DNA from: a virus | Lineage: Duplodnaviria > Heunggongvirae > Uroviricota > Caudoviricetes | Virus record (IMG/VR): IMGVR_UViG_2534681604_000014 | Span: 1 to 52,506 of that record | Reading direction: 5' to 3' (one strand) | DNA: 52,506 nt | Shown: piece by piece, positions 8,441 through 27,739 of the stretch | How the letters are laid out: every line of letters starts with the position of its first letter | Position numbering within the stretch: the stretch's first letter is position 1 | The notes under the pieces: model-generated | Seen by the model: only the letters and a program-made list of their open reading frames with translations | Databases searched by the model: none | What the model was told of the DNA's origin: nothing | Position numbers and translations under genes: made by a program

Positions 8441-8474
8441 ATAGCTTCGTATAGCATACATTATACGAAGTTAT
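8441..8474. other. loxP-like Cre recombination site with one arm substitution
   Basis: ATAGCTTCGTATA-GCATACAT-TATACGAAGTTAT; canonical loxP arm is ATAACTTCGTATA, so one arm has G at position 4. Confidence 0.9.
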
Positions 8475-8904: not shown

Positions 8905-9300
8905 ATGTTTAATGGCCTGACAGATGCCAAGGTAAACGCCTTACTGAACGACGCAAAACAAAAAGCTGCTAACCCTGGAACGAATGAAAATGAACGTGCT
9001 ATGGCTGTTGCAATTTGGGAGTTAGCAGAAGAAGTAAAGCGAAACCGCTTACTATACACTCGGGTTTACCAGCAATTTGATGGTGCGAGCTGGATAGATA
9101 TCGAAGAGGCTGAATATGCAACATGCAAAAAAGAAAAAAAGATTGTTCGGATTTTGCATAAAGCAGCAACCCCAATCACTGTAGAAATCCCCGATCACAG
9201 ATATTTCGAGAACGATGATCTACCAGGGGATGTGATTCGAATTATTGATGAGATACTTCATGAACAAGGCTTAACTGTTAAAATTACGCATAATAAATGA
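8905..9300 (+). CDS. hypothetical protein, overlaps cre start
   Basis: 131-aa ORF; 4-nt ATGA overlap with cre; no recognisable motif. Confidence 0.45.
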   Translation: MFNGLTDAKVNALLNDAKQKAANPGTNENERAMAVAIWELAEEVKRNRLLYTRVYQQFDGASWIDIEEAEYATCKKEKKIVRILHKAATPITVEIPDHRYFENDDLPGDVIRIIDEILHEQGLTVKITHNK

Positions 9301-10328
9301 CTAATTCGTTAACCGTTCACCAAAATTTGCCTGCATTGCCGGTCGATGCAACGAGTGATGAGGTTCGCAAGAACCTGATGGATATGTTCAGGGATCGCCA
9401 GGCGTTTTCTGAGCATACCTGGAAAATGCTTCTGTCCGTTTGCCGGTCATGGGCGGCATGGTGCAAGTTGAATAACCGGAAATGGTTTCCGGCAGAACCT
9501 GAAGATGTTCGCGATTATCTTCTATATCTTCAGGCGCGCGGTCTGGCAGTAAAAACTATCCAGCAACATTTGGGCCAGCTAAACATGCTTCATCGTCGGT
9601 CCGGGCTGCCACGACCAAGTGACAGCAATGCTGTTTCACTGGTCATGCGACGGATCCGAAAAGAAAACGTTGATGCCGGTGAACGTGCAAAACAGGCACT
9701 GGCGTTCGAACGCACTGATTTCGACCAGGTTCGTTCACTCATGGAAAATAGCGATCGCTGCCAGGATATACGTAATCTGGCATTTCTGGGGATTGCTTAT
9801 AACACCCTGTTACGTATAGCCGAAATTGCCAGGATCAGGGTTAAAGATATCTCACGTACAGACGGTGGGAGAATGTTAATCCATATTGGCAGAACGAAAA
9901 CGCTGGTTAGTACCGCGGGTGTTGAGAAGGCACTTAGCCTGGGGGTAACTAAACTGGTCGAGCGATGGATTTCTGTCTCTGGTGTGGCTGATGATCCGAA
10001 TAACTACTTGTTTTGCCGTGTCAGAAAAAATGGCGTAGCTGCGCCATCTGACACCAGCCAGCTATCAACTCGCGCCCTGGAAGGGATTTTTGAAGCAACT
10101 CATCGATTGATTTACGGCGCTAAGGATGACTCTGGTCAGAGATACCAGGCCTGGTCTGGACACAGTGCCCGTGTCGGAGCCGCGCGAGATATGGCCCGCG
10201 CCGGAGTTTCAATACCGGAGATCATGCAAGCTGGTGGCTGGACCAACGTAAATATTGTCATGAACTATATCCGTAACCTGGATAGTGAAACAGGGGCAAT
10301 GGTGCGCCTGCTGGAAGATGGCGATTAG
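9297..10328 (+). CDS. cre: Cre tyrosine recombinase
   Basis: 343 aa, near-identical to P1 Cre from residue 6 onward; N-terminus is MTNSL rather than MSNLL. Confidence 0.97.
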   Translation: MTNSLTVHQNLPALPVDATSDEVRKNLMDMFRDRQAFSEHTWKMLLSVCRSWAAWCKLNNRKWFPAEPEDVRDYLLYLQARGLAVKTIQQHLGQLNMLHRRSGLPRPSDSNAVSLVMRRIRKENVDAGERAKQALAFERTDFDQVRSLMENSDRCQDIRNLAFLGIAYNTLLRIAEIARIRVKDISRTDGGRMLIHIGRTKTLVSTAGVEKALSLGVTKLVERWISVSGVADDPNNYLFCRVRKNGVAAPSDTSQLSTRALEGIFEATHRLIYGAKDDSGQRYQAWSGHSARVGAARDMARAGVSIPEIMQAGGWTNVNIVMNYIRNLDSETGAMVRLLEDGD

Positions 10329-10846: not shown

Positions 10847-10937
10847 TGAGCCGCAGTTTTTGTCAACTACGAAGACGTTGCCATTACTTCACTCCTTGAC
10901 ATCATTGGCGGCCATTAGGCCGCCTTTTTTTTGCCAT

Positions 10938-11498: not shown

Positions 11499-11687
11499 TA
11501 AATATATTATTTTTAATCTTAAATGATTGACAACTGACAAGTGACTTCAGTCAGAATCATCACACGCCCGGTACGGATGGATCCCTTTTCAAATATTCCA
11601 TGGACGGCACAGTCTGAGTACCGGGCGCTACCTTCAGTTGTATTGCTAAACCGCCGCGGGTGGCTTTTCTTTTTTGTAGGGGGCGCT

Positions 11688-12329
11688 ATGGATAAGAAAA
11701 TATGCGTTGTTTCGATGAGCGTCGGCAAACCGGCGTCAATGGCTGCTGCATGGATCAACAACGAGCTGATAATGGCTGAGCGGACCAGCTACCCTGAACG
11801 CCGCCGCGACATGGAACTCCAGCTGCTGCGCGAATTGCGAGAAAAAGAGGAAAAGGGTTTTATCGTGCTGGTGGAAGAGGAAAACAGCTTTATTACTGGT
11901 CGAGTTGGCCAGCGTGTAAGGTTGCGCGATCCCTTCATGAACGGCAGGCCGGTACTGATTGAAGCAATGCAGATTTACAAGGAGCTGGAACGCCAGAAAG
12001 CGATCAAGTTACCGCGCAAGGAATCCGGCAAATACATCCTCCACCAAAGCATCTTCGATTCCGAACACGATAAAAAAGGCGATGAATTTTTCAACATCAA
12101 CTGGAGTGAAATAACGACAGAGTATGTACTGACGTTACTATGTTGCTTTGCGACGGAATACAACAACGTTGCCAGCGCCGACTACATCAGGGCAATGGCT
12201 GGAGAAGTTGAGGCACGCCAGGAACCATCGTTACTAAGCCCTCTCATTAACATAATTCGGGGCACACAGAAACTTGCAGAAAAAAGAGTTCCTCATGGAA
12301 TCTTAACTGGAGAGGGGAACTATTTTTAA
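11688..12329 (+). CDS. mat: Mat-like protein
   Basis: 213 aa from ATG 11688 (MDKKICV...); lies between ref and res as P1 mat does. Confidence 0.5.
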   Translation: MDKKICVVSMSVGKPASMAAAWINNELIMAERTSYPERRRDMELQLLRELREKEEKGFIVLVEEENSFITGRVGQRVRLRDPFMNGRPVLIEAMQIYKELERQKAIKLPRKESGKYILHQSIFDSEHDKKGDEFFNINWSEITTEYVLTLLCCFATEYNNVASADYIRAMAGEVEARQEPSLLSPLINIIRGTQKLAEKRVPHGILTGEGNYF

Positions 12330-12370: not shown

Positions 12371-12394
12371 AAAAGGAGGTTTTCACCTCCTTTT
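12371..12394. terminator. bidirectional stem-loop between convergent mat and res
   Basis: 10-bp perfect stem AAAAGGAGGT / ACCTCCTTTT with loop TTTC. Confidence 0.6.
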
Positions 12395-12403
12395 AAACTA
12401 GAA

Positions 12404-15316
12404 TTATGGTAATGCGCTCTTGATTAACTGATAAATATCATCATTAGCAAACTGCGTTCTGAATTCAACTTTAACAGACTGACTTATTTGATTGAAAAGC
12501 GCTTGGGCATGTTCAATTTTCCGTTTTTCTTCAAGCCGTAAACTATCCTTACTATCTACGTTTTTTGTTTCAATGATAAAGTTAAGATAATCACCTTCCG
12601 CTGTTTTTACAACATAAGCAAAATCGGGTGAGTAAGTGTATCCACCAGCTACCGGGATCTTAATAGAATTCTTCGGTATCTTTGAAAAAACAACAACAGA
12701 CTGGATCTCTCTATCTGTTATATTACGCCTTTCAAGCTCTGAATCATAAAAAACTTCTTCAAAAAGATAAGTATCTAATGGTGCTTTTGCATTATCCTGC
12801 AATACACCAAGATCACTTGATAATACCTCGCCTAGAGGATTACCATCAGCATTTGTGAACTTTGTAGGATGAATTGAACCCGAAATCAAATTATATCCGA
12901 GGCTGAATTTGTTAAACGAATTGTGCAACAAATACTTACTAAAACCAGATTTAATTTTTCTGATTGTTTGAATATTAAGGTATTCAGTGATATTAATAGT
13001 GTCTTTTATATCACAAAAAACTTTATGTAAAGTACCGTGTTTAACAAAAATAGTTTGTGATAAGTTATCGAGAAACTCTCGATAGCTCATTGTGTTTAGC
13101 TTAGCAAAGTCATCGTCATCACTGACAATGCTTTTCGACATTGCCATATCATTGTGGATGTAAATTTTATCAATGCGAGTATGAACGCCTGATTTGGTAA
13201 ATCGTTCTGTTTCTTCGAGCATGAATGACTTGAAAATGGATAAAAATTCACTTTCACTGTTTATTTTGTACTCAATCACCGCTTTTTGATTGATCAAATC
13301 CCATAGTTCTTTCAGCTCACTGAACTTACCAACACGCATTTTAGTGCGTCTTTTTCCATCAGTAGCTTTTTTGATTTTACCAGGTTTCACTCCTATAGGG
13401 AATGCTGCTGGATATTTGGATTTTAAGCGGCTATAGGCATCTGAATCTTTGAAATTATCATTGTCATCAATGATTTCATCATTGAAAAGTTCATTCATTA
13501 GTGCTCTGGATGAAAGCTCAGGATACTGAGCCCTGATTTGTTCCTTAAGCTCTTGAGTAAACTTACTTGGAACCCTTTCTTTGAAAGAACTCTCGTTGAC
13601 CTCTTTAACAAGTGAGTCAACAAAATCCTTTTCTGTAAAATCAACATAATATTTAAGGGTAAAATTGCGGTCTTTCACTCGACACATGTATTCATTCACA
13701 GGAAGACGCAAACCGCGCCCTACCTCTTGAAGCTTAGATGTGGTACTACCGCTCGAACGGAGCTTACAGATCTGAAAGACATTAGGATTATCCCACCCCT
13801 CACGCAACGTCCATTTTGAGAAAATAAACCGACGGGGATTATCTAAAGACAGCAAAAGCTCTTTGTCATGAAGGATTTCGTTGATTTCCTGCTCGATTTT
13901 ATCATCCTTATCACTGTTATCTTTTGAGAAATAACCACCATGAACGGAAGATATATTTTTGACTGTTTTTTCAAGATAGTTTTTATAAAACGCATCATGC
14001 TCTGTTTTTAACAGTTCATTAGCTTCTGCCAGAACGTATTCTTCGAATTTGGTCTTCAGGCTTCCGGCAATATCATTACCGTCACGATAGCCTTCAATAT
14101 CGTCAATAAAGAAAAGAGTAAGAGGCTTTATGCGTGGCCTTTGTGTCAGAAGTTCTTTTTCTAACTTAAAGTGTTCTTTGACAGCCTTACGCATCATGTT
14201 ATCAGCGAGTGTCTGATCGTAAGAATAGGGATTTATTGAGCTACCAATCTTCAACTCAATACCATTACTCAACACTGCTGTGCTCTTGTTTAAAGCATCA
14301 AGAGTTAAATCATGGATCGCACTATGCGTCTTAGACAGCGATTCACCTTTAGCTAACTTAAACGATTTTTTTTTGTTGTTTTCATTCAGTTCAAATGTAG
14401 CTTCCTTTCCGTCAGATTTGACGAATTTGAGGTTTGCGTTACCATCGCCGACTATATCCTCAATATATGCATCAATACCTTTAACGAGATCTTCGTTAAA
14501 TGCGTCCACGGCTGTAAGACGATAAACCAGGTTCTTATAGCCTTCGCTAAAGGTTGCGCCATAGCGGATAATATATTGTGCGTTAAATTTCTCTATGTTT
14601 TCCCATGTTTTTTTACCAGTAGGAAATCTATGTGGTTCGTCAATGATGATAAATGGTTTTACAGCTCTGAGCGCGTCAACTGGAGTATTAAACTGATTAT
14701 CAAGCAAGCCAGTATCGTAAGTATCCGTTAAAGACTTAGAGTTGATCATTCCTGAGTTAATAACAAGAACGTGTATATATTTTTTATTGAAGTTACTTGC
14801 TTCAACAAAATCATGTATAGCCTGAGGCATATACGATTTTGTATTTTTGCCAGAGTTTTTCTGACTTTCAACAACGTAAGTTCTCAGCTCACGCTCGTAA
14901 TCATCCCGGAAATGTTCTTTTAAAGCATCACTTTTTAAAAAGTTAACGGTTCCGGCCTTGATAGATAGAGTCGGAACAATGATGATAAACTTGTTAATAC
15001 CAAATGATTTATTCAGGTCAAAAATAGTTTTGGTATAGGTGTACGTCTTGCCTGTACCTGTCTCCATAGAAACATCAATGATGTTGCTTTTAGCATTGTG
15101 ATTATCTTTTGAGTGCGCAATACCATTGAACGCCTGAACATTTTTTATATTGTTGTAGTATTGTTGTTCAGACAGCTTCAGTTCTGGATTAGCTAAAAGG
15201 CGAACAGCAACATTATCCGTCAGGTGAGGTGTTGCGGAAACAAAAACATTCATCACCGCATCGACTCCTGCTTTCTGATGCGGCAAGTTCTTTTCGAGAG
15301 TGAACCCTTTTGACAT
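12404..15316 (-). CDS. res: type III restriction enzyme Res subunit
   Basis: 970 aa; helicase Walker A GTGKT, motif II DEPH, C-terminal PD-(D/E)xK-like YSPDF...IIETK; low GC. Confidence 0.9.
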   Translation of the reverse strand: MSKGFTLEKNLPHQKAGVDAVMNVFVSATPHLTDNVAVRLLANPELKLSEQQYYNNIKNVQAFNGIAHSKDNHNAKSNIIDVSMETGTGKTYTYTKTIFDLNKSFGINKFIIIVPTLSIKAGTVNFLKSDALKEHFRDDYERELRTYVVESQKNSGKNTKSYMPQAIHDFVEASNFNKKYIHVLVINSGMINSKSLTDTYDTGLLDNQFNTPVDALRAVKPFIIIDEPHRFPTGKKTWENIEKFNAQYIIRYGATFSEGYKNLVYRLTAVDAFNEDLVKGIDAYIEDIVGDGNANLKFVKSDGKEATFELNENNKKKSFKLAKGESLSKTHSAIHDLTLDALNKSTAVLSNGIELKIGSSINPYSYDQTLADNMMRKAVKEHFKLEKELLTQRPRIKPLTLFFIDDIEGYRDGNDIAGSLKTKFEEYVLAEANELLKTEHDAFYKNYLEKTVKNISSVHGGYFSKDNSDKDDKIEQEINEILHDKELLLSLDNPRRFIFSKWTLREGWDNPNVFQICKLRSSGSTTSKLQEVGRGLRLPVNEYMCRVKDRNFTLKYYVDFTEKDFVDSLVKEVNESSFKERVPSKFTQELKEQIRAQYPELSSRALMNELFNDEIIDDNDNFKDSDAYSRLKSKYPAAFPIGVKPGKIKKATDGKRRTKMRVGKFSELKELWDLINQKAVIEYKINSESEFLSIFKSFMLEETERFTKSGVHTRIDKIYIHNDMAMSKSIVSDDDDFAKLNTMSYREFLDNLSQTIFVKHGTLHKVFCDIKDTINITEYLNIQTIRKIKSGFSKYLLHNSFNKFSLGYNLISGSIHPTKFTNADGNPLGEVLSSDLGVLQDNAKAPLDTYLFEEVFYDSELERRNITDREIQSVVVFSKIPKNSIKIPVAGGYTYSPDFAYVVKTAEGDYLNFIIETKNVDSKDSLRLEEKRKIEHAQALFNQISQSVKVEFRTQFANDDIYQLIKSALP

Positions 15317-17421: not shown

Positions 17422-17670
17422 TTAATCCGCATTGAGAAGCAATGCATTATCTATGATGATCTGCTCCCATTCTTCGAATGCCCGATCGCGGACCCCCTGG
17501 GGAACACTGTTTGTTTTGAAATCAACGACTGTCCGCCATTTCCCGTCCGGACGGTACATGCGCAGAGCTTTACTGCCCCCTTCCCTTCGCACCTCAACGT
17601 TATGCTTGTCAGCAAACTCTTGTAATGCTCGTAGCGTCCCATGCTTTACTGTGTAGTATCGCTTTTTCAA
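17422..17670 (-). CDS. lxc: Lxc/Bof C1 co-repressor
   Basis: 82-aa ORF (MKKRYYTVKHG...) upstream of ulx-darB as in P1. Confidence 0.65.
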   Translation of the reverse strand: MKKRYYTVKHGTLRALQEFADKHNVEVRREGGSKALRMYRPDGKWRTVVDFKTNSVPQGVRDRAFEEWEQIIIDNALLLNAD

Positions 17671-18107
17671 GTTTTCTCTCCAGCCTGTGCCAAGGCTTCA
17701 ACTTCCAAATCGTAAGACTCAAACTCATAGTCTTGGTCGTCAACTTCTTCAGGCACTGGCAGTAAATGCCAGGCTGAGTATATCTGACCATTATCAAAAC
17801 GCTCCTGGCTGTAGAGCGTCGCGGCTATGAGTGTTAGCGCCGGGCGGTCATAACGGTAAATTTTGCGAACGTCACGGTCAACGAGACGACCGAAATTACC
17901 ATAACCGCGCTCCAGTAATAATTTTTTAATTTCCGGCCAGTATGGGCCATAGCTGCGGTACAGGCGGGGATTTTTAAGCAATCGCCCGCGTAGCCCTGAC
18001 AGGAAGAAATCAACGTATTCGTCTTCTGTCTTTCCTAACAACGCCGTACGCAGTACCGCCTCAAGATATGTTTTATTCGGTTTTATTGTATCAGATAGTG
18101 TGGACAT
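17667..18107 (-). CDS. ulx: Ulx
   Basis: 146-aa ORF between darB and lxc; 4-nt overlap with lxc. Confidence 0.6.
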   Translation of the reverse strand: MSTLSDTIKPNKTYLEAVLRTALLGKTEDEYVDFFLSGLRGRLLKNPRLYRSYGPYWPEIKKLLLERGYGNFGRLVDRDVRKIYRYDRPALTLIAATLYSQERFDNGQIYSAWHLLPVPEEVDDQDYEFESYDLEVEALAQAGEKT

Positions 18108-18140
18108 ATTATGCGACGCCCGGCGAACCGGGCGCTCCTG

Positions 18141-21100
18141 TTATGCGTATTGTTGGATGACGGCCAGAACGTCCGCCACGTTGTGTTTTGTCTCGATAAT
18201 CCACCAGTTACCCGGGAAATCGCTGTTCTTCGCCTTCGCTGGCAGCCAGCGAGCGCCGAATTTCGCCTTGATTGCGTCTTTCGCACGGAAAAGAATGCCT
18301 TTCATGCCGGACGCCTCCTGAAGCCCAAATACCTCGCCAGCGGCGAATTTTGGTGCGTACATCATCTTCAGGTCGGCGGTGGATACGCGATAATTCAGCC
18401 CAAGAGACTGAGCTATGCTGGTGGCATCACCCTGTATTGATGATAACTCTTCTTGTTTCTCGTTTCTGGCGGCAATTTCTTCCTCCGTGATGTTGCCTAG
18501 GGCCAGGTTTATCCGATCAGCGTCGGCCTGTTTCTCTTCATCGGTGCGTCCGGCAAGAACCGTGTTAATTCTCTGCAATATCTCCACATGATTCTTGCGC
18601 ATGCTGAGCAATTCCGGCGTAACCTCGTTAAGGTCCACCAGCCCAAGGATGGCAAGGTCGGAAAACATTGATACCAGGTTGTAGGTCATGCGATAGCTGA
18701 GTTGGCCATAGGCTGATGGCAACTGCACCGAATCCATTTTATAGGCATCCATAAATTTAGAGCCGTCGTTTACGACTTCCGCAATTGCAGGTGTGATTTT
18801 CCCTGTGGTGGCGGCCTCCCTGATTGCTGTTACCCACGATTGAGTCAGCGCGGCGACTGCATGATTCAGATTGGCTTTCCGTTCTGCTGCAATGCGCGCG
18901 CTTGCAGCGTCCATTGCCTGCTTGATCTCGTCTTTATTGCTGTAAATGCCAATGGTGCCAAACTGTGCTGTGGTGATCTCAAAGTCTGACGCCCGGAACT
19001 CATTAATACCGAAAATGGCATTGGTGACCTCAAGTTCAGAATCACCGTTACGGGTAGCCCCCTGGCTTGTTTTCTCCGGCATTCTGGCGATCGCATCCGC
19101 TATTTTCTCCTGAATTGCTTCAGGGGATAGCGTATCTCCGTATGACGCGATTACATCGCCATAATTGGAGCCAAACAGTTCAGTCAGGAATACTTCTGCC
19201 AAACGGACCTGGCGGTTATTCCCTTCCGACATCATACCAAGCACCCATTTAGCAATTGACGACTTCAGGGCGCCGTCACGGCGATCCGGATAAACCGCAT
19301 GCTTCAGCGGGTCCGTATAGGTACCAACAAAATCAATGCTGTAGCCTGACTCTGTAGTCTGAACGCCGTATGAGTCAGTGATTTTGATCATGCCGCGCTG
19401 CTGGAAACGGTAGAAATCGTCACAGGAAATGATGTCGTTAATCCCGGCGATGGAGACGCCACCACTGATTTTCTGCATAACAGCATCTTCATCGGGAGTT
19501 ACATCCACCTGTTTATCCAGCGTCTTCACATCCCAGTTACCCGATTTGGTACCTTTGAAGGTAAAGATAATCTCCACGTCTGCGCGCTGGCTGTCGAAGT
19601 CCAGCGACTTAATGCGAACGATATCACCGGCACAATCGTAGTATTGGCCTACACGCCATGAGCGATCGCCGATAACAAGGAACTCATTCGCATGGTTAAC
19701 CAGATCAGGATCAACATCCAGAATGCCTTTATTTATTGCATCCTCCACCAGCGGGCGCAGGCGTTTGATATCCGTCGCGGCCTTCTGAGTACGGTTCAAT
19801 AATTTCTCATAACGGGAGATGGCCTGAGAGATATTAGCCTTGCGCTGAATGGCGCTTTTCAACGACGCGCGATACTGTGCTAACAACGTACGGTCTGTGT
19901 GATGGACGCTACCCCAGCGGGCCTTCCAGTCTGCGTTATCAGCTGCTTTGGCCATTGCCGCCTGTTTGAATTTAGCTACCTCGGCGGTGGTCTTTTCAAG
20001 TTCCGCTTTGCTTCGCTCTAATTCAGCGGTAAGTACCTCCACATCCTCGCCAGCTGCGTGCTGCGCCTTGATGTAGTTCTGAAGGTCGATAGTAGCCTGT
20101 TCTTTCTGGCGAGCGCGTTGCGCGGCTTTCGCCTTATCCATTTGAACCTGCATCATTGCCAGACGTTCGCCGTCATCCTTCGCGGTATACATCTGCATTT
20201 CGATCATGTCATTGGCGTCGGCGTTCTCCATTTCTGACTTATCTGAACGGAGGATATCGGAGATCCAGCCTGCTTTACGCTTCAGCGTCTTCAGTCGGTA
20301 TTCATCGAAAGAACCCTTGCCGCAGTAGTAGTGAACGCGAACGCTTGCACGGTTGGAGCCAACTCGGGCACCGCGACCGTTTCGTTGCGCAATACTGGCT
20401 GGAGTCCATGGCAACGTCAGATGATGGATGTCAGTCGTTCCTCGATGCAGGTTGATACCCACCTCTGCCTTTTTGTTGCAGATGATGATCGGAGTCCGGC
20501 CCTCCTGGAAGTCGGCTGCAATCTTTTCCAGACCGCCCAACGACATTTCATTTTGCTGCGCGATATAGGCGTCATACAGAGCCATTTGCTCGTTGTATTT
20601 CGCTATCTGTGCATCTGTTGGTTCATCCGATAACTCTTTCGGCGGTTTAACCGCTTTCAGTTTCTTACCGGTTTTACCTGCCTCGGCAACCGTCTGAGCA
20701 TTCAGGATCCCCACCTTTGAAGGTTCAAGGTTAAGAGCATTGCAGATAATGCGCTTGAGTTTCTGGTGCTGCGTTTTTTCGTCCGTGAAGATGATTTGCT
20801 TACCTTCCGGGAAAAACTCCTTCAGCGTGGCGATCAGCTTCGCGTATTTGGGTGTAACGGGGTGAGTTACGGTCTGTTCGTCAATGCCAAACCTGGCCAG
20901 GCGCTTATTCACTTCCTGCTCGAACGCTTCCGGAACCTGCAACTGAATAAACTCGCCCTTATCTATCAGGGAGTATTGCGATTGCTGCGTGATTGAATCA
21001 TCACTGTCGTCGTCTTCGCTGGTGGCTTGTTTAGGCAAACTGTCCGCCAGCTGCTGCACCGCATCGGCGTACTCCGGCAGGAAACGATAGGTGATCCGGC

Positions 21101-24100
21101 GATAGTACAGGTCCATGTCAGTACATACGCGGTCCATATCCCTGATTATTGAGAAGATCGGACGGGCTTTCTCGTGCTCAATCACGCCGTCTTCATTGAC
21201 CGAGGTCGTTACGCCATTGTTGGCTTTTGCTGCCGCTTCCGCCTGCTGACGCAATTCTTCATACGCCGCCAGTTGTTCTTCAGTAAGTGGTGCATCCTGC
21301 TGGTGTTCGTCCAGTTCCGGGATCTCCACGGTATCCTTAACGTCTTCCGCCGTTTTAAGCGTTGTCCAGCGATGGAATATGCCGCGCAGCGCATCAAGGT
21401 TTTCAAAACCCACCAGCGCCATTTTTTCTTCAACTTCACCGCTGATTTTCTGTACCGTTTCCAGCCTGGTCTTGCCGAAGAATTTAACGAAGTCATCAGG
21501 ACCGTAGATCCCCATCTTCTGCCAGTATTCCTTCGGCAGAACATGAGAAAGCATGTTGTATGCATCGATCGGGGTGTTAACGACTGGCGTTGCAGTCAGG
21601 AGAACCGGTCCGCGCCCGCCATTCTTTTTCATCAGGTACGCGTTTTTGATTGCCATATCTCGCGCCGATTGCGCCACCGCGCTGGTGGGCAGATAGGCCA
21701 GCTGTGACGCTTCGCGACCATTTTTATAGCTATTGCGGTAGTTGTGGCCTTCGTCAGCAATCACGCTGTCGAAGCCCATATCCTCAAAGTACGGATACTT
21801 CTCTGCTTTTTCGGTACCGGTATCTGAATACTCCGACAATACCCGGCGACGCGCCGCCTCTTTGCGGTGGGAGTCGGAGTCCATTGCGCTGGCTACGCGC
21901 CCGGCAGCAACGAAGTCATAAAGCATATCCTGTGCATGCTCATCTACGGTGTCATCACGTAGCGGAATGCGGGCGTATTGTTCTTTGGTAAACACGACTG
22001 CACGGTAATTTGAGTGCGGGATCGCATTCATCCGCGCCGTGATAGTGGCTTCATCTGCCAGTTTAAGGGCATCGCGCATAACTGGAGTACCATCAGTACC
22101 AAGAACAGGTTTACCGTTCTCATCGAGCACCGGCACCTGGCGAATCTGATCGCTGTCCATCAGTACATCCAGACCGACGAACAGGTAGTTACTGAAGGCT
22201 TCTTCACTCAGGAACTCTTTTGCTTCGTAATACCAGTTTTCCAGCACTGATTTAGGCACTACATAAGCAGTACGGGTGGAGCGACCGTTCTCATAGTTGA
22301 ACGCCTCAAGCGCCAGCGCGGTCGTGGTTTTACCCAGCCCGGTACCGAAGCCCAGGATGCCGCGCCCATCTTCGGACAGTCTGCGCACCTCGCTATTCTG
22401 GTAATCAAATGGCTGTCGCTTACCGCTTAATCCCTTCAACCCAAGCGGATCGCCAGAGTGTTCATACGGGATATTGCTATTGAAAACATCGTTGTATTTG
22501 GCAACCAGCTCATCGTAGCGATCGTGCGTCTTGATCCACTTATTGAACTGGTCCTCAAGCAGTGCCATCTGCTCGCGGTAGCCGTTCGCCGTCGCGCTAT
22601 CTTTTCCACCGATACGCGCACCATTGAGATACTTTTCCAGCTGTGCCGGGAACCCGGTCGCGTTTTCACCTGATTTACGGTCCCACTCGTAGCGGATCTC
22701 GCCTGTTTCTTTATCCTTGCGCTGGACGACACCGTATCGGTGCCCGACGAACAGACCATCACCACCGTGATAGGTGTCAGAAACCATTTCGTCGCCTTCC
22801 AGCTGCACTGACTGCACATAGCGCAGATCCGGATAGCCGTTTTCCTGCAAAAACTCCAGAATGACGGAGCGGTCGAACCAACGGCTATTGAGCTTAAAGC
22901 GGATATTCTCTGCTGGCGTCTTGATGCGCTTCTCTTCGATCGCTGCCAGCTGATTAAGGACGTTGTTCTTTACTGGACCGTCGGGGAGTGTGGCAAGGAA
23001 TTCCTGTTTTGGAGCCACTATCTCGTTAATGTCGCCGCTGGTGGCGCGGGCGAACGGAACAATCCCGCCATACGGTGAAACCGCAATACCAGGGGTGCTG
23101 GCCAATAAATTAAGCAACTCTTCATCACTGGCTGGCAGTTCGCCGGTAAACGCAAGGCGGAAATCATCGAGCTGGATTGGATCGCGGGTAAGATCGCTAT
23201 AGAGATAACGCAGGGTGTCCTGATAGCTGGTGGAGTCATAACTGGCGCTGGAATCATGCGTAACCAGCTTTCCTGTCAGCTCGTCAGAAATAGTGCCATC
23301 CAGCTTAATTGCACCACGGAAAGCAAACCAGGCGCGCGCACCGCTTCCCGATAATTTAGCTATCGGACCGCGACCGGGGTTACCAAAACGGTCAATCTCT
23401 GCCTGCAAACGGGATACCAGAGAAAGGCGCTGCTGTTCGATTTGTTCAGCACTATGCCCGGCGGCCTTCATGTCCTGATATTCAATTAACATCCGGCCAA
23501 TCATCGCCCCGCGATACAAGCGTTCACGGTATTTTTCAGGCTGGCTGTTAATCCAGTCCACCAGCTGCACCATATCGTCGCTGATTGATGTGGTGTACTT
23601 ATCGCGGACATTTGCCATCTGGGTAAATGTCATACCGAGACGGCCTTCTGTTGTAGTCAGGTTACGCTGAAGAGCCTCCCAGCTATCCGCGCCATAACTG
23701 GCAGCATCAATCTTAAGCTCCTTACCAGCATCAGCTTCAATCCAGCGACCACCAGCATATTTTTGCCATACGCCATTAATCAGGCGCATTTCCCCTTCAT
23801 CAACAACATCTGCGGTCGGTGACGGTTCAGCCATATCGAGCAAAGACCAGTCGATACGACTTTCGAAACGATGAATCAGCTTCGCTTTAAGAGCCTGGTT
23901 ATCAATCTGCCCGTCGGCACGAACCTCAATACGCCCCTGGAATCCCTTCTCCTGGGTGCCATGAACAAACCGGCGGCCGTCCTTTTCAAACCACTTGCCA
24001 GAAATAAACGTTGGCCAAAGCACATTTGCCGATTCAAGAGTGCTTTTATCCACCAGGGGGATTTTCTCAGCCATCTCTGCCGAATGTTTGCGCATCAGCA

Positions 24101-24908
24101 CCACATCAACGACTGTACTGGTCCCGTTTGCGTCAAAAGTACCGGTAGGCAAGCGGTGAGCGCCAAGAAATTCAGCTTTCCGTGATAGGCGCAGGCGTAA
24201 CCGCTTCATGTTTGAACCTGAAACAATGGACGGCGGCACAATCACACACATGAATCCGCCTGGCTTTATCTTGTCCAGCATGCGGAGCATGAAGTAAGAC
24301 CCCATGTCCGTTTCTTCTGCGTAAGGCTTATCGATGTTGCGTGTGTTATCACGACCGCCGAACGGAACGTTACCCACAACATGGTCGAATGAATCGTTAG
24401 GCGTGCTTACAGCCAGTTGTTCGAACGGGGAAATCTGTACGCTGTCTTCCGGATGTAACAGCTGGTTTATACGACCGGAAACACTGCTGATCTCAGTCGC
24501 GGTCATCACCGTACCAACCGGTTTTGTCTCATTAAAAACGCCGGTGCCCGCCGATGGTTCCAGAGTGTTACCTACGTCCGCGCCGTAGAGCTTCATGATC
24601 TCCCAGACACCTTCAGCGATCGGCTTTGGTGTGTAATATTCGGAGACGGACCCGCCAATGCCGCCTTCACCAGTGTACCCGGCCAGGATCTGGCGCTGTT
24701 CATCTGTCAGTGTCGCGCCGTCCACCAGTGAATTAAGCAAATCTATCGCCTTCTGATTCGCCTCCCGGCGCAGTCGGTCATAGCTTTTGCCTTCCACCTT
24801 TTCCACGCCGTATTTAATCGGCGCTCGGTGAGATGCTATTGCCCTAATGTATTTCAATATTTCGCTGACACTTGAACAGCGAAACACCCCCATAGATAGC
24901 TTGTTCAT
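18141..24908 (-). CDS. darB: DarB anti-restriction protein (N6-adenine MTase plus SF2 helicase)
   Basis: 2255 aa; MTase motifs EPSAGTG and NVPFGG; helicase GLGKT and DEGH. Confidence 0.9.
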   Translation of the reverse strand: MNKLSMGVFRCSSVSEILKYIRAIASHRAPIKYGVEKVEGKSYDRLRREANQKAIDLLNSLVDGATLTDEQRQILAGYTGEGGIGGSVSEYYTPKPIAEGVWEIMKLYGADVGNTLEPSAGTGVFNETKPVGTVMTATEISSVSGRINQLLHPEDSVQISPFEQLAVSTPNDSFDHVVGNVPFGGRDNTRNIDKPYAEETDMGSYFMLRMLDKIKPGGFMCVIVPPSIVSGSNMKRLRLRLSRKAEFLGAHRLPTGTFDANGTSTVVDVVLMRKHSAEMAEKIPLVDKSTLESANVLWPTFISGKWFEKDGRRFVHGTQEKGFQGRIEVRADGQIDNQALKAKLIHRFESRIDWSLLDMAEPSPTADVVDEGEMRLINGVWQKYAGGRWIEADAGKELKIDAASYGADSWEALQRNLTTTEGRLGMTFTQMANVRDKYTTSISDDMVQLVDWINSQPEKYRERLYRGAMIGRMLIEYQDMKAAGHSAEQIEQQRLSLVSRLQAEIDRFGNPGRGPIAKLSGSGARAWFAFRGAIKLDGTISDELTGKLVTHDSSASYDSTSYQDTLRYLYSDLTRDPIQLDDFRLAFTGELPASDEELLNLLASTPGIAVSPYGGIVPFARATSGDINEIVAPKQEFLATLPDGPVKNNVLNQLAAIEEKRIKTPAENIRFKLNSRWFDRSVILEFLQENGYPDLRYVQSVQLEGDEMVSDTYHGGDGLFVGHRYGVVQRKDKETGEIRYEWDRKSGENATGFPAQLEKYLNGARIGGKDSATANGYREQMALLEDQFNKWIKTHDRYDELVAKYNDVFNSNIPYEHSGDPLGLKGLSGKRQPFDYQNSEVRRLSEDGRGILGFGTGLGKTTTALALEAFNYENGRSTRTAYVVPKSVLENWYYEAKEFLSEEAFSNYLFVGLDVLMDSDQIRQVPVLDENGKPVLGTDGTPVMRDALKLADEATITARMNAIPHSNYRAVVFTKEQYARIPLRDDTVDEHAQDMLYDFVAAGRVASAMDSDSHRKEAARRRVLSEYSDTGTEKAEKYPYFEDMGFDSVIADEGHNYRNSYKNGREASQLAYLPTSAVAQSARDMAIKNAYLMKKNGGRGPVLLTATPVVNTPIDAYNMLSHVLPKEYWQKMGIYGPDDFVKFFGKTRLETVQKISGEVEEKMALVGFENLDALRGIFHRWTTLKTAEDVKDTVEIPELDEHQQDAPLTEEQLAAYEELRQQAEAAAKANNGVTTSVNEDGVIEHEKARPIFSIIRDMDRVCTDMDLYYRRITYRFLPEYADAVQQLADSLPKQATSEDDDSDDSITQQSQYSLIDKGEFIQLQVPEAFEQEVNKRLARFGIDEQTVTHPVTPKYAKLIATLKEFFPEGKQIIFTDEKTQHQKLKRIICNALNLEPSKVGILNAQTVAEAGKTGKKLKAVKPPKELSDEPTDAQIAKYNEQMALYDAYIAQQNEMSLGGLEKIAADFQEGRTPIIICNKKAEVGINLHRGTTDIHHLTLPWTPASIAQRNGRGARVGSNRASVRVHYYCGKGSFDEYRLKTLKRKAGWISDILRSDKSEMENADANDMIEMQMYTAKDDGERLAMMQVQMDKAKAAQRARQKEQATIDLQNYIKAQHAAGEDVEVLTAELERSKAELEKTTAEVAKFKQAAMAKAADNADWKARWGSVHHTDRTLLAQYRASLKSAIQRKANISQAISRYEKLLNRTQKAATDIKRLRPLVEDAINKGILDVDPDLVNHANEFLVIGDRSWRVGQYYDCAGDIVRIKSLDFDSQRADVEIIFTFKGTKSGNWDVKTLDKQVDVTPDEDAVMQKISGGVSIAGINDIISCDDFYRFQQRGMIKITDSYGVQTTESGYSIDFVGTYTDPLKHAVYPDRRDGALKSSIAKWVLGMMSEGNNRQVRLAEVFLTELFGSNYGDVIASYGDTLSPEAIQEKIADAIARMPEKTSQGATRNGDSELEVTNAIFGINEFRASDFEITTAQFGTIGIYSNKDEIKQAMDAASARIAAERKANLNHAVAALTQSWVTAIREAATTGKITPAIAEVVNDGSKFMDAYKMDSVQLPSAYGQLSYRMTYNLVSMFSDLAILGLVDLNEVTPELLSMRKNHVEILQRINTVLAGRTDEEKQADADRINLALGNITEEEIAARNEKQEELSSIQGDATSIAQSLGLNYRVSTADLKMMYAPKFAAGEVFGLQEASGMKGILFRAKDAIKAKFGARWLPAKAKNSDFPGNWWIIETKHNVADVLAVIQQYA

Positions 24909-27717: not shown

Positions 27718-27739
27718 AACCCCGGCGGCTGCCGGGGTT
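27718..27739 (+). terminator. stem-loop after pro
   Basis: AACCCCGGC-GGCT-GCCGGGGTT. Confidence 0.5.

Follow-up and report, generated by a model that had tools for sequence, protein, structure and literature searches.

Introduction

Ribosome binding sites in which an RNA structure brings a distant Shine-Dalgarno (SD) sequence close to its start codon are best described in phage T4. At gene 38 an RNA structure shortens the SD-AUG spacing from 22 to 5 nt, and at gene 25 from 27 to 11 nt (reviewed in PMC3014915). Destabilising mutations lower initiation at both genes, where the structure has been confirmed by reporter assays as well as DMS probing (PMC3014915). These hairpin-bridged sites are kept in close T-even phages and absent from distant ones (PMC3014915). 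The site at the junction of genes 26 and 25 was described as a "split" or "accommodated" ribosome binding site (Nivinskas et al. 1999; Malys & Nivinskas 2009, both as summarised in PMC3014915). Few natural hairpins between an SD and a start are known to aid initiation, and T4 genes 38 and 25 are the standard examples.

A second relevant system is the "split ribosome binding site" of Escherichia coli thrS (Sacerdot et al., discussed in PMC3936740), where the ribosome also accommodates a folded hairpin without melting it. There, however, the hairpin separates a single-stranded standby segment from an SD-AUG unit of normal spacing, and it serves as an operator bound by a repressor (PMC3936740).

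Here we describe the junction between darB and ulx in a P1-type phage-plasmid. Ulx is a functional component of the Dar anti-restriction system (PMC12810830), and DarB-dependent protection against EcoB and EcoK restriction requires it (PMC12810830, PMC9024508). A literature search, which did not extend to the P1 genome paper (PMC523184), returned no description of the ulx ribosome binding site and no usable P1 transcript map.

Results

The window, that is the whole stretch of 52,506 nt that was analysed, is 98–99% identical to phages P1, P7 and RCS47 and to many P1-type plasmids, and its darB-ulx junction is 100% identical to that of E. coli plasmid NZ_CP104510.1. Both genes lie on the minus strand. 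The darB coding sequence, taken from the ORF list, occupies 18141..24908 (2255 aa; 98–99% identity to the annotated darB of P1, P7 and RCS47) and ends with a UAA at 18143-18141. The ulx coding sequence (17667..18107) encodes the 146 aa Ulx, also called OlxA. The 33 nt between the two genes correspond exactly to 18108-18140. In the P1 record this spacer carries no annotated feature and no terminator, and no promoter of its own is annotated for ulx between darB and the ulx start.

Read on the mRNA strand, the junction is gca-UAA-c-AGGAG-CGCCCGG-uucg-CCGGGCG-ucgcauaau-AUG. An initial annotation had placed an AGGAG right after the darB stop and a 7-bp stem between this motif and the ulx AUG, and both are present in the sequence. 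The AGGAG lies at 18135..18139, separated from the stop by a single c, and directly abuts the hairpin. The 5′ arm CGCCCGG (18128..18134), a UUCG tetraloop (18124..18127) and the 3′ arm CCGGGCG (18117..18123) form a perfect, all-G:C stem of 7 bp that spans 18134-18117. An A/U-rich spacer of 9 nt, ucgcauaau (18108..18116), connects the hairpin to the start codon at 18105..18107, which is the first start after an in-frame stop. The linear distance from AGGAG to AUG is 27 nt. The hairpin accounts for 18 of these, and 9 nt remain when it is looped out.

The best anti-SD duplex in the region is formed by the distal AGGAG (−6.6 kcal/mol). Closer to the start, in the 16 nt that precede the AUG, no duplex is better than −2.7 kcal/mol, and the one with this value falls inside the paired 3′ arm. 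The same annotation had stated that the ulx start lacks an SD at normal spacing, which agrees with these values.

We also considered where ulx begins. Alignments with Ulx homologues start at Met1 for identities down to 30%, and the frame upstream is either closed or not conserved, so an alternative or upstream-extended start was rejected. Ulx peptides have been detected in purified P1 virions by LC-MS/MS (PMC9024508). The in-frame stop ahead of it, the homologue alignments and the detected protein together support the annotated AUG at 18107 as the real start of ulx.

The 18-nt hairpin folds with −13.6 kcal/mol (z = −3.3), and a 76-nt context has an MFE of −19.3 kcal/mol (z = −2.3). When a 301-nt mRNA context was folded, each of the seven stem pairs had a probability of 0.96–1.00. 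The SD and the spacer are mostly unpaired in the folds. The exception is an optional G18135.U18116 pair, in which the last G of AGGAG joins U18116 as a G.U pair that forms the eighth pair of the MFE fold.

Such a hairpin is not a product of chance. The 52.5-kb window holds three perfect all-G:C hairpins of 7 bp with loops of 3–6 nt, whereas 200 dinucleotide-preserving shuffles average 0.08. The layout of SD, hairpin, spacer and start was found at one of 1143 candidate start codons in the window (those opening ORFs of at least 50 codons on either strand), namely that of ulx. With up to 3 mismatches tolerated, the window still contains just one copy of the 18-mer. It is present in 672 of 5426 complete E. 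coli genomes (∼12%), at a median of one place per genome, and among the E. coli records listed it always sits at the darB-ulx junction. A search of Rfam over 17600-18600 gave no relevant match at E-values up to 10.

We then compared the junction with the two T4 sites, which were read directly from sequence. The gene 38 site reads gcaUAAGGAG-AGGGGC-uucg-GCCCUU-cuaaau-AUG. Like the ulx junction it is intercistronic and non-coding, with a stop codon adjoining or overlapping (A)AGGAG, a G+C-rich hairpin with a UUCG loop immediately behind the SD, a short A/U-rich spacer and the AUG. Both folds add a weak outer helix in which CAUA before the stop pairs with UAUG at the start. The two differ in that the last two SD bases of gene 38 are drawn into the stem, whereas the SD of P1 stays essentially outside a perfect 7-bp G:C helix, and the remaining spacer is 5–6 nt in gene 38 compared with 9 nt in ulx. 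The genes and the phages are unrelated, and the mutational support belongs to T4; that for ulx is comparative.

The gene 25 site reads GAGG-c-CUCAAAG-aguu-CUUUGAG-uuacuaua-AUG. Its dimensions equal those of ulx: SD and AUG are 27 nt apart, and a 7-bp stem with a 4-nt loop takes up 18 nt of this distance. The gap between SD and stem is 1 nt in gene 25 and 0 in ulx, and 8–9 nt remain to the AUG in both. In both cases the structure is retained by close relatives and missing in distant ones. The gene 25 hairpin is A/U-rich and weak (−6.4 kcal/mol against −13.6 kcal/mol for ulx). It also lies within the coding sequence of gene 26, whose stop overlaps the gene 25 start (UAAUG), and is thus constrained by coding, whereas the P1 element is non-coding; only selection on RNA would therefore explain the P1 hairpin.

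The ulx element has every feature by which the class of T4 genes 38 and 25 can be recognised in sequence. The SD is more than ∼15 nt from the start (27 nt), and a stable hairpin lies wholly between the SD and the AUG. The spacing after excision of the hairpin is 9 nt, within the functional range of about 5–11 nt (9 nt by the same count in T4 gene 25, 5–6 nt in gene 38). The window has no competing proximal SD, and the hairpin is conserved through compensatory changes, as described below.

Ulx homologues were gathered from phage records, plasmids, GTDB genomes, IMG/VR and metagenomes, and the upstream junction of each was read. A first viral scan for Ulx returned almost exclusively 99%-identical copies from P1. 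Scanning the viral contigs with the Erwinia protein gave no match, and with the protein of Enterobacteriaceae B14 only the same contig. A metagenome scan with a highly degenerate pattern yielded 120 mostly random loci, from which local tblastn left 9 true Ulx loci.

The layout was kept in 130 of 131 enterobacterial-type Ulx loci, with 24 distinct hairpin variants; the sole exception (L103) has lost darB. A GGAG-type SD lies 0–2 nt before the stem in all 24 variants. The stems have 6–8 bp, are almost purely G:C and fold with −12 to −16 kcal/mol. The loops have 3–5 nt, usually 4, and are often UUCG or GNRA, with no conserved sequence. The spacer between stem and AUG is A-rich and 6–9 nt long in every variant, again with no conserved sequence. 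Linear SD-AUG distances were 24–28 nt in the 20 variants measured and about 22–27 nt in the metagenome variants. The intergenic region is 30–40 nt long, the darB stop lies 0–11 nt ahead of the SD in every variant, and the hairpin lies 6–13 nt past that stop.

The range of sequences that keep this layout is wide. JK004, whose Ulx is 87% identical to that of the window, has UAA-AGGAG-CGCCCGG-cggag-CCGGGCG-aauaaccgu-AUG, and Pantoea alvi (Ulx 72%) has UAAc-GGAG-CGCCCGG-gaag-CCGGGCG-aauaaac-AUG. In Enterobacteriaceae B14 (Ulx 56%) the junction is UAA-GGGGGG-GCGCCCC-aguc-GGGGCGC-aagcaaa-AUG. D6 (Ulx 47%) has UAAcagauA-AGGAG-CGGCCCC-aacc-GGGGCCG-aauuuga-AUG, and a Citrobacter locus (Ulx 49%) has UAAuuuucau-GGAGA-GGCCCAG-guga-CUGGGCC-aaaaagaa-AUG. 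Further variants are GGAG-CUGCCCC-gcaa-GGGGCAG-aaggcaa-AUG (L138), GGAG-CGGCCUC-gaaa-GAGGCCG-aauuaaa-AUG (L112), GAGGAau-GCGCUCA-gaaa-UGGGCGC-uaaagauug-AUG (L233, Ulx about 49%) and AGGAG-CGGCCC-gaaa-GGGCCG-ucacac-AUG (L149, Ulx about 47%).

The stem changes while its pairing does not. In a structural register of 19 distinct hairpins, standard pairs fill 99.2% of the cells, and 5 of the 7 pairs are altered on both sides. These 19 hairpins contain 34 doubly changed cells against 13.3 in shuffles, and their covariation score is 0.666 against 0.168, a value reached by none of 500 shuffles. Sliding the 3′ partner by 1–3 columns reduced pairing to 34–58%. The hairpins for this alignment were delimited by eye or by MFE fold, and trimming on hairpins favours structure. 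This bias was mitigated by the slid controls and by an alignment in the register chosen by MAFFT itself. With all 24 variants in that register, 91.6% of cells were paired, 6 of 8 pairs had double changes, and again 0 of 500 shuffles reached the observed value. The sequences share ancestry, so that more compensatory cells are counted than there were independent events, and the safer figure is that of about seven distinct stems; at least seven are present (CGCCCGG, CGGCCCC, GCGCCCC, CUGCCCC, CGGCCUC, GGCCCAG and GCGCUCA). Pairing persists across homologues whose Ulx is only 46–50% identical to that of the window.

Three variants carry wobble pairs, G.U in L010 and U.G in L013 and L233, and each of these pairs on the mRNA-sense strand only. 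Since the wobbles pair solely in sense-strand RNA, they favour a structure in the mRNA over a DNA cruciform or an antisense RNA. The comparative data show that the hairpin is kept by compensatory evolution as an RNA structure of the mRNA-sense strand.

Eleven more distant homologues (from Desulfovibrio, a Bacteroidales MAG, Marinobacterium, Spirochaetaceae, Aeromonas and Vibrio) have no such hairpin, and all of them have an ordinary SD 4–8 nt from the AUG. Two such junctions read UGA-AAGGAG-ccugaaaa-AUG, where the intergenic region measures 14 nt, and UAA-AGGAG-aaaaacu-AUG. The gene upstream is a long darB-like ORF where this was checked (the Desulfovibrio loci and a Vibrio plasmid). On an Aeromonas plasmid the upstream ORF is shorter, looks unrelated and overlaps the start of the ulx homologue.

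When the 18-nt hairpin is removed from the P1 junction, UAAc-AGGAG-ucgcauaau-AUG remains, a region of 15 nt with the layout of the hairpin-less junctions. The simplest reading is that a canonical junction acquired an 18-nt G:C hairpin, placed between its SD and its spacer, in the enterobacterial lineage. Since then the distances from SD to stem and from stem to AUG would have been held such that the folded site still works.

One of the distant loci deserves separate mention. In the Vibrio homologue a long and strong intercistronic hairpin lies upstream of the canonical SD.

Two relatives have lost darB. In E. albertii plasmid L006 and in contig L103 the breakpoints of the deletion lie inside or at the palindrome, and in L006 the ulx start is mutated to ACG. 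Neither of the two informs on the bridging model.

Discussion

The comparative data indicate that the hairpin between darB and ulx is a real and selected RNA element, whose function would lie in the ribosome binding site. We consider the darB-ulx intergenic region to be a hairpin-bridged, or "split"/"accommodated", ribosome binding site, with a probability of about 65%. In an extended mRNA the sole usable SD, the AGGAG 27 nt from the ulx AUG, would be too far away. With the stem folded and looped out of the spacer, the helix of SD and anti-SD and the AUG would be ∼9 nt apart, a normal distance at which a 30S subunit could initiate at the ulx AUG. The SD abuts the stem without a gap, so the SD-anti-SD helix could conceivably stack on the hairpin. 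We infer that the stem stays folded while the ribosome initiates and that efficient translation of ulx depends on it. The initial annotation had proposed that the hairpin may bring a distant SD into range, and that proposal gains support from the compensatory stems, the constant geometry, the hairpin-less relatives, whose proximal SD lies at roughly the spacing left by excising the hairpin, and the anatomy shared with T4. The geometry on which bridging depends stays constant while the sequences turn over.

An alternative is that the hairpin is mainly an element of intercistronic mRNA stability or processing, whose position in the ribosome binding site is merely tolerated. It could act as a 3′ barrier that protects the 6.8-kb darB message from 3′-5′ exonucleases, or it could set differential decay of the darB and ulx-lxc parts. 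The hairpin has the makings of such an element: it is all G:C with −12 to −16 kcal/mol, roughly double the stability of the equally sized hairpin at T4 gene 25, it lies in a non-coding spacer soon after the darB stop, and in the Vibrio homologue a strong intercistronic hairpin precedes a normal SD, which hints that the darB-ulx hairpin may have a function of its own. Stabilisation by itself, however, requires neither the abutting GGAG of all 24 variants, nor a fixed 6–9 nt to the AUG, nor the missing proximal SD of the P1-type junctions, and 3′ ends at the hairpin would leave ulx on a separate transcript without an SD. We regard it as unlikely to be the main role. It is compatible with bridging as a second function. 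Nothing forces a hairpin into a non-coding spacer, so that a second function, as a stabiliser of the darB 3′ end or in tuning the ratio of DarB to Ulx, is quite plausible. No coding constraint explains a hairpin here, unlike in T4 gene 25, and bridging may thus be a consequence of the hairpin rather than its purpose, the ribosome binding site having been built around it.

A more speculative proposal is that the hairpin is a dedicated module placed in an ancestral canonical stop-SD-AUG junction, one that caps and stabilises the very long darB message or sets the DarB:Ulx ratio and, in addition, stacks coaxially on the SD-anti-SD helix, giving an initiation complex of unusual stability that depends on the structure. 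An SD-abutting G:C tetraloop hairpin might in this case be a design used more than once, with separate origins in T4 (gene 38) and in P1/D6-type phage-plasmids, and is perhaps widespread but unannotated. We put this forward as a long shot.

A different possibility is that the hairpin inhibits ulx translation and enforces coupling, by termination and reinitiation after darB, and that in D6-type junctions ribosomes leaving darB unmask an SD-like G-run in the 3′ arm. The stop codon is 0–11 nt before the SD in every variant, as coupling would have it. Several D6-type 3′ arms contain GGGG or GAGG, which form anti-SD duplexes of −5 to −7 kcal/mol at 8–10 nt from the AUG, and in the L112 variant CCUC pairs with GAGG as a literal anti-SD/SD hairpin. 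In these D6-type lineages the 3′ arm may therefore represent a masked proximal SD of moderate strength that would be exposed if the hairpin melts. The 3′ arm CCGGGCG of the window and the P1-type variants, by contrast, is not SD-like (−2.7 to −2.9 kcal/mol; the Newport variant L008, with −6.4, is the exception). Except for the one optional G.U pair of the SD, neither the SD nor the AUG of the window is inside the stem, and a hairpin that sequesters either element there was rejected. Melting would also leave the distal GGAG 24–28 nt away and useless, and the universal conservation of this motif would go unexplained. As a general account coupling is improbable, and the data support it weakly, in the D6-type variants only.

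Programmed readthrough that would yield a DarB-Ulx fusion was also considered. The window, P1 and JK004 have the darB UAA and ulx in one reading frame, at a distance of 33 nt. Of the 18 hairpin-bearing junctions checked, however, 10 do not keep this relation, and in D6 and Erwinia an in-frame UGA stands shortly ahead of the ulx AUG. Because the frame is not conserved and these stops intervene, readthrough was rejected.

That the hairpin terminates or attenuates transcription between darB and ulx is very improbable. Rho-independent terminators and stabiliser hairpins share with the ulx element a G+C-rich stem-loop soon after a stop codon, and the other two all-G:C hairpins of the window are classic terminators followed by T-runs, one on the plus strand (10907-10924) and one on the minus strand (27720-27737). 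The ulx hairpin differs in its position, which is fixed relative to the SD and the start, and in having no U-tract on either strand, the tail being ucgcauaau on the mRNA strand and CTCCTGTTA on the other. It was not called by a terminator scan, the tails of its homologues are A-rich, no terminator is annotated there in P1, and the P1 record gives ulx no promoter of its own between darB and the start.

Least probable of all is a palindrome that acts at the DNA level, as a recombination or protein-binding site or as the relic of a mobile palindromic element, without a function in RNA; the breakpoints of the two darB-deleted relatives would suit it, but the palindrome is single-copy per replicon, its stem is free to change provided that pairing is kept, and opposite the wobbles a cruciform would have A.C mismatches in its other strand. 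A loop that is not conserved argues against recognition by a sequence-specific protein, and with the stem sequence not conserved either, an operator of this kind is unlikely. Dispersed palindromic repeats (REP/BIME-like or MITE) were rejected, the element being found once in the window and at a median of one place per E. coli genome.

As a hairpin-bridged ribosome binding site, the darB-ulx junction would add a third case to those of T4 genes 38 and 25, in a phage family that is unrelated to T4 and is carried by ∼12% of complete E. coli genomes. The comparative support is unusually clean, with many compensatory stems, a fixed geometry and hairpin-less homologues that serve as a natural control. 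Since the element is non-coding, it may lend itself better than T4 gene 25 to studying how a helix between SD and AUG is accommodated by the 30S subunit. The finding also bears on the annotation and engineering of P1-type elements. Where gene finders and RBS calculators put a penalty on long spacers or on structured ribosome binding sites, they would mis-score ulx. In P1 engineering, for instance when darB is deleted or a phagemid is designed, loss of the SD or of half the stem could silence ulx.

Reading frame and predicted outer helix at the junction

The darB UAA and the ulx AUG (18105-18143, minus strand) share a reading frame, with 33 nt and no stop codon between them; this also applies to P1, JK004 and some others. 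This shared frame is not a conserved feature: among 18 junctions with a hairpin that were checked, 10 have the two genes in different frames, and the D6 and Erwinia junctions carry an in-frame UGA. A DarB-Ulx readthrough fusion is therefore unlikely.

MFE folds of both the P1 darB-ulx and the T4 gene 37-38 junctions add a weak outer helix, in which (G)CAUA directly 5′ of the upstream stop codon pairs with UAUG(U) at the start of the downstream gene. This helix joins 18143-18147 with 18104-18108 on the minus strand of the window and 2619-2622 with 2649-2652 in the T4 locus (L264); CAUA/UAUG is common to the two junctions. In the predicted folds, such a helix would place the stop and start codons side by side. 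The likeness may nevertheless be chance, because the outer helix of JK004 is a different one of 5 bp and D6-type variants lack one altogether.

Directly 3′ of the start codon, ulx codon 2 in the window is TCC (18102-18104), giving the N-terminus MSTLS; P1 and nearly all relatives have GCC and MATLS. This change could influence initiation. Among E. coli records, NZ_CP104510.1 alone is 100% identical over the 61-nt junction.

Other Shine-Dalgarno arrangements in relatives

Some D6-type variants (L112/L208, L003 and others) have a hairpin that pairs an anti-SD-like CCUC/CCCC with an SD-like GAGG/GGGG located 8-10 nt from the AUG. Since the SD-like element is paired within the hairpin, these lineages may, judging from their sequences, carry an exposed distal SD together with a masked proximal one.

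The junction of a darB-like and an ulx-like gene on a Vibrio sp. plasmid (L005, NZ_CP046068.1, 947-1006) is arranged differently, the hairpin preceding the SD. Within its 60-nt spacer, an extended hairpin of about 13-17 bp (-29 kcal/mol with flanks) and then UUGUUU come before a canonical GGAGA-5 nt-AUG. CUGGAG is found in the 5′ arm of the hairpin and again as the proximal SD.

Relatives without darB

Two relatives have lost darB, and in both the deletion or rearrangement breakpoint falls in the hairpin palindrome or at its border. Homology restarts in the hairpin loop (TCGCCGGGCG...) in the E. albertii plasmid NZ_CP030784.2 (L006, about 975-1010) and at the second base of the stem in an IMG/VR contig (L103, 1-48). 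The ulx gene of the E. albertii plasmid looks like a pseudogene because its start ATG is mutated to ACG. Breakpoints may tend to form at this palindrome, or else the loss of darB and the SD may leave ulx to decay.

Other palindromes in the window

Besides the ulx hairpin, the window contains two all-G:C 7-bp hairpins, GGCGGCC-atta-GGCCGCC-TTTTTTTT (10907-10924, plus strand) and CCCCGGC-agcc-GCCGGGG-TTATTTTT (27720-27737, minus strand). Each has a T-run after the stem, and both look like canonical intrinsic terminators. A 10-bp perfect palindrome with A4/T4 flanks, AAAAGGAGGT-tttc-ACCTCCTTTT (12371-12394), lies between the ends of the convergent ORFs 11541..12329 (plus) and 15316..12404 (minus). 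One arm is an SD and the other the complement of that SD; the palindrome has the appearance of a bidirectional terminator.

The palindrome CTTCGTATAGCATACATTATACGAAG (8445-8470), which matches the loxP core, lies next to an ORF (9297-10328, plus strand) of 343 aa, the length of Cre. The loxP-like palindrome and the Cre-length ORF fit the P1 identity of the window.

Occurrence in E. coli

Of 5426 complete E. coli genomes, 672 carry the darB-ulx junction, at 661 plasmid and 18 chromosomal places. This count serves as a gauge of how frequent P1-type elements are.
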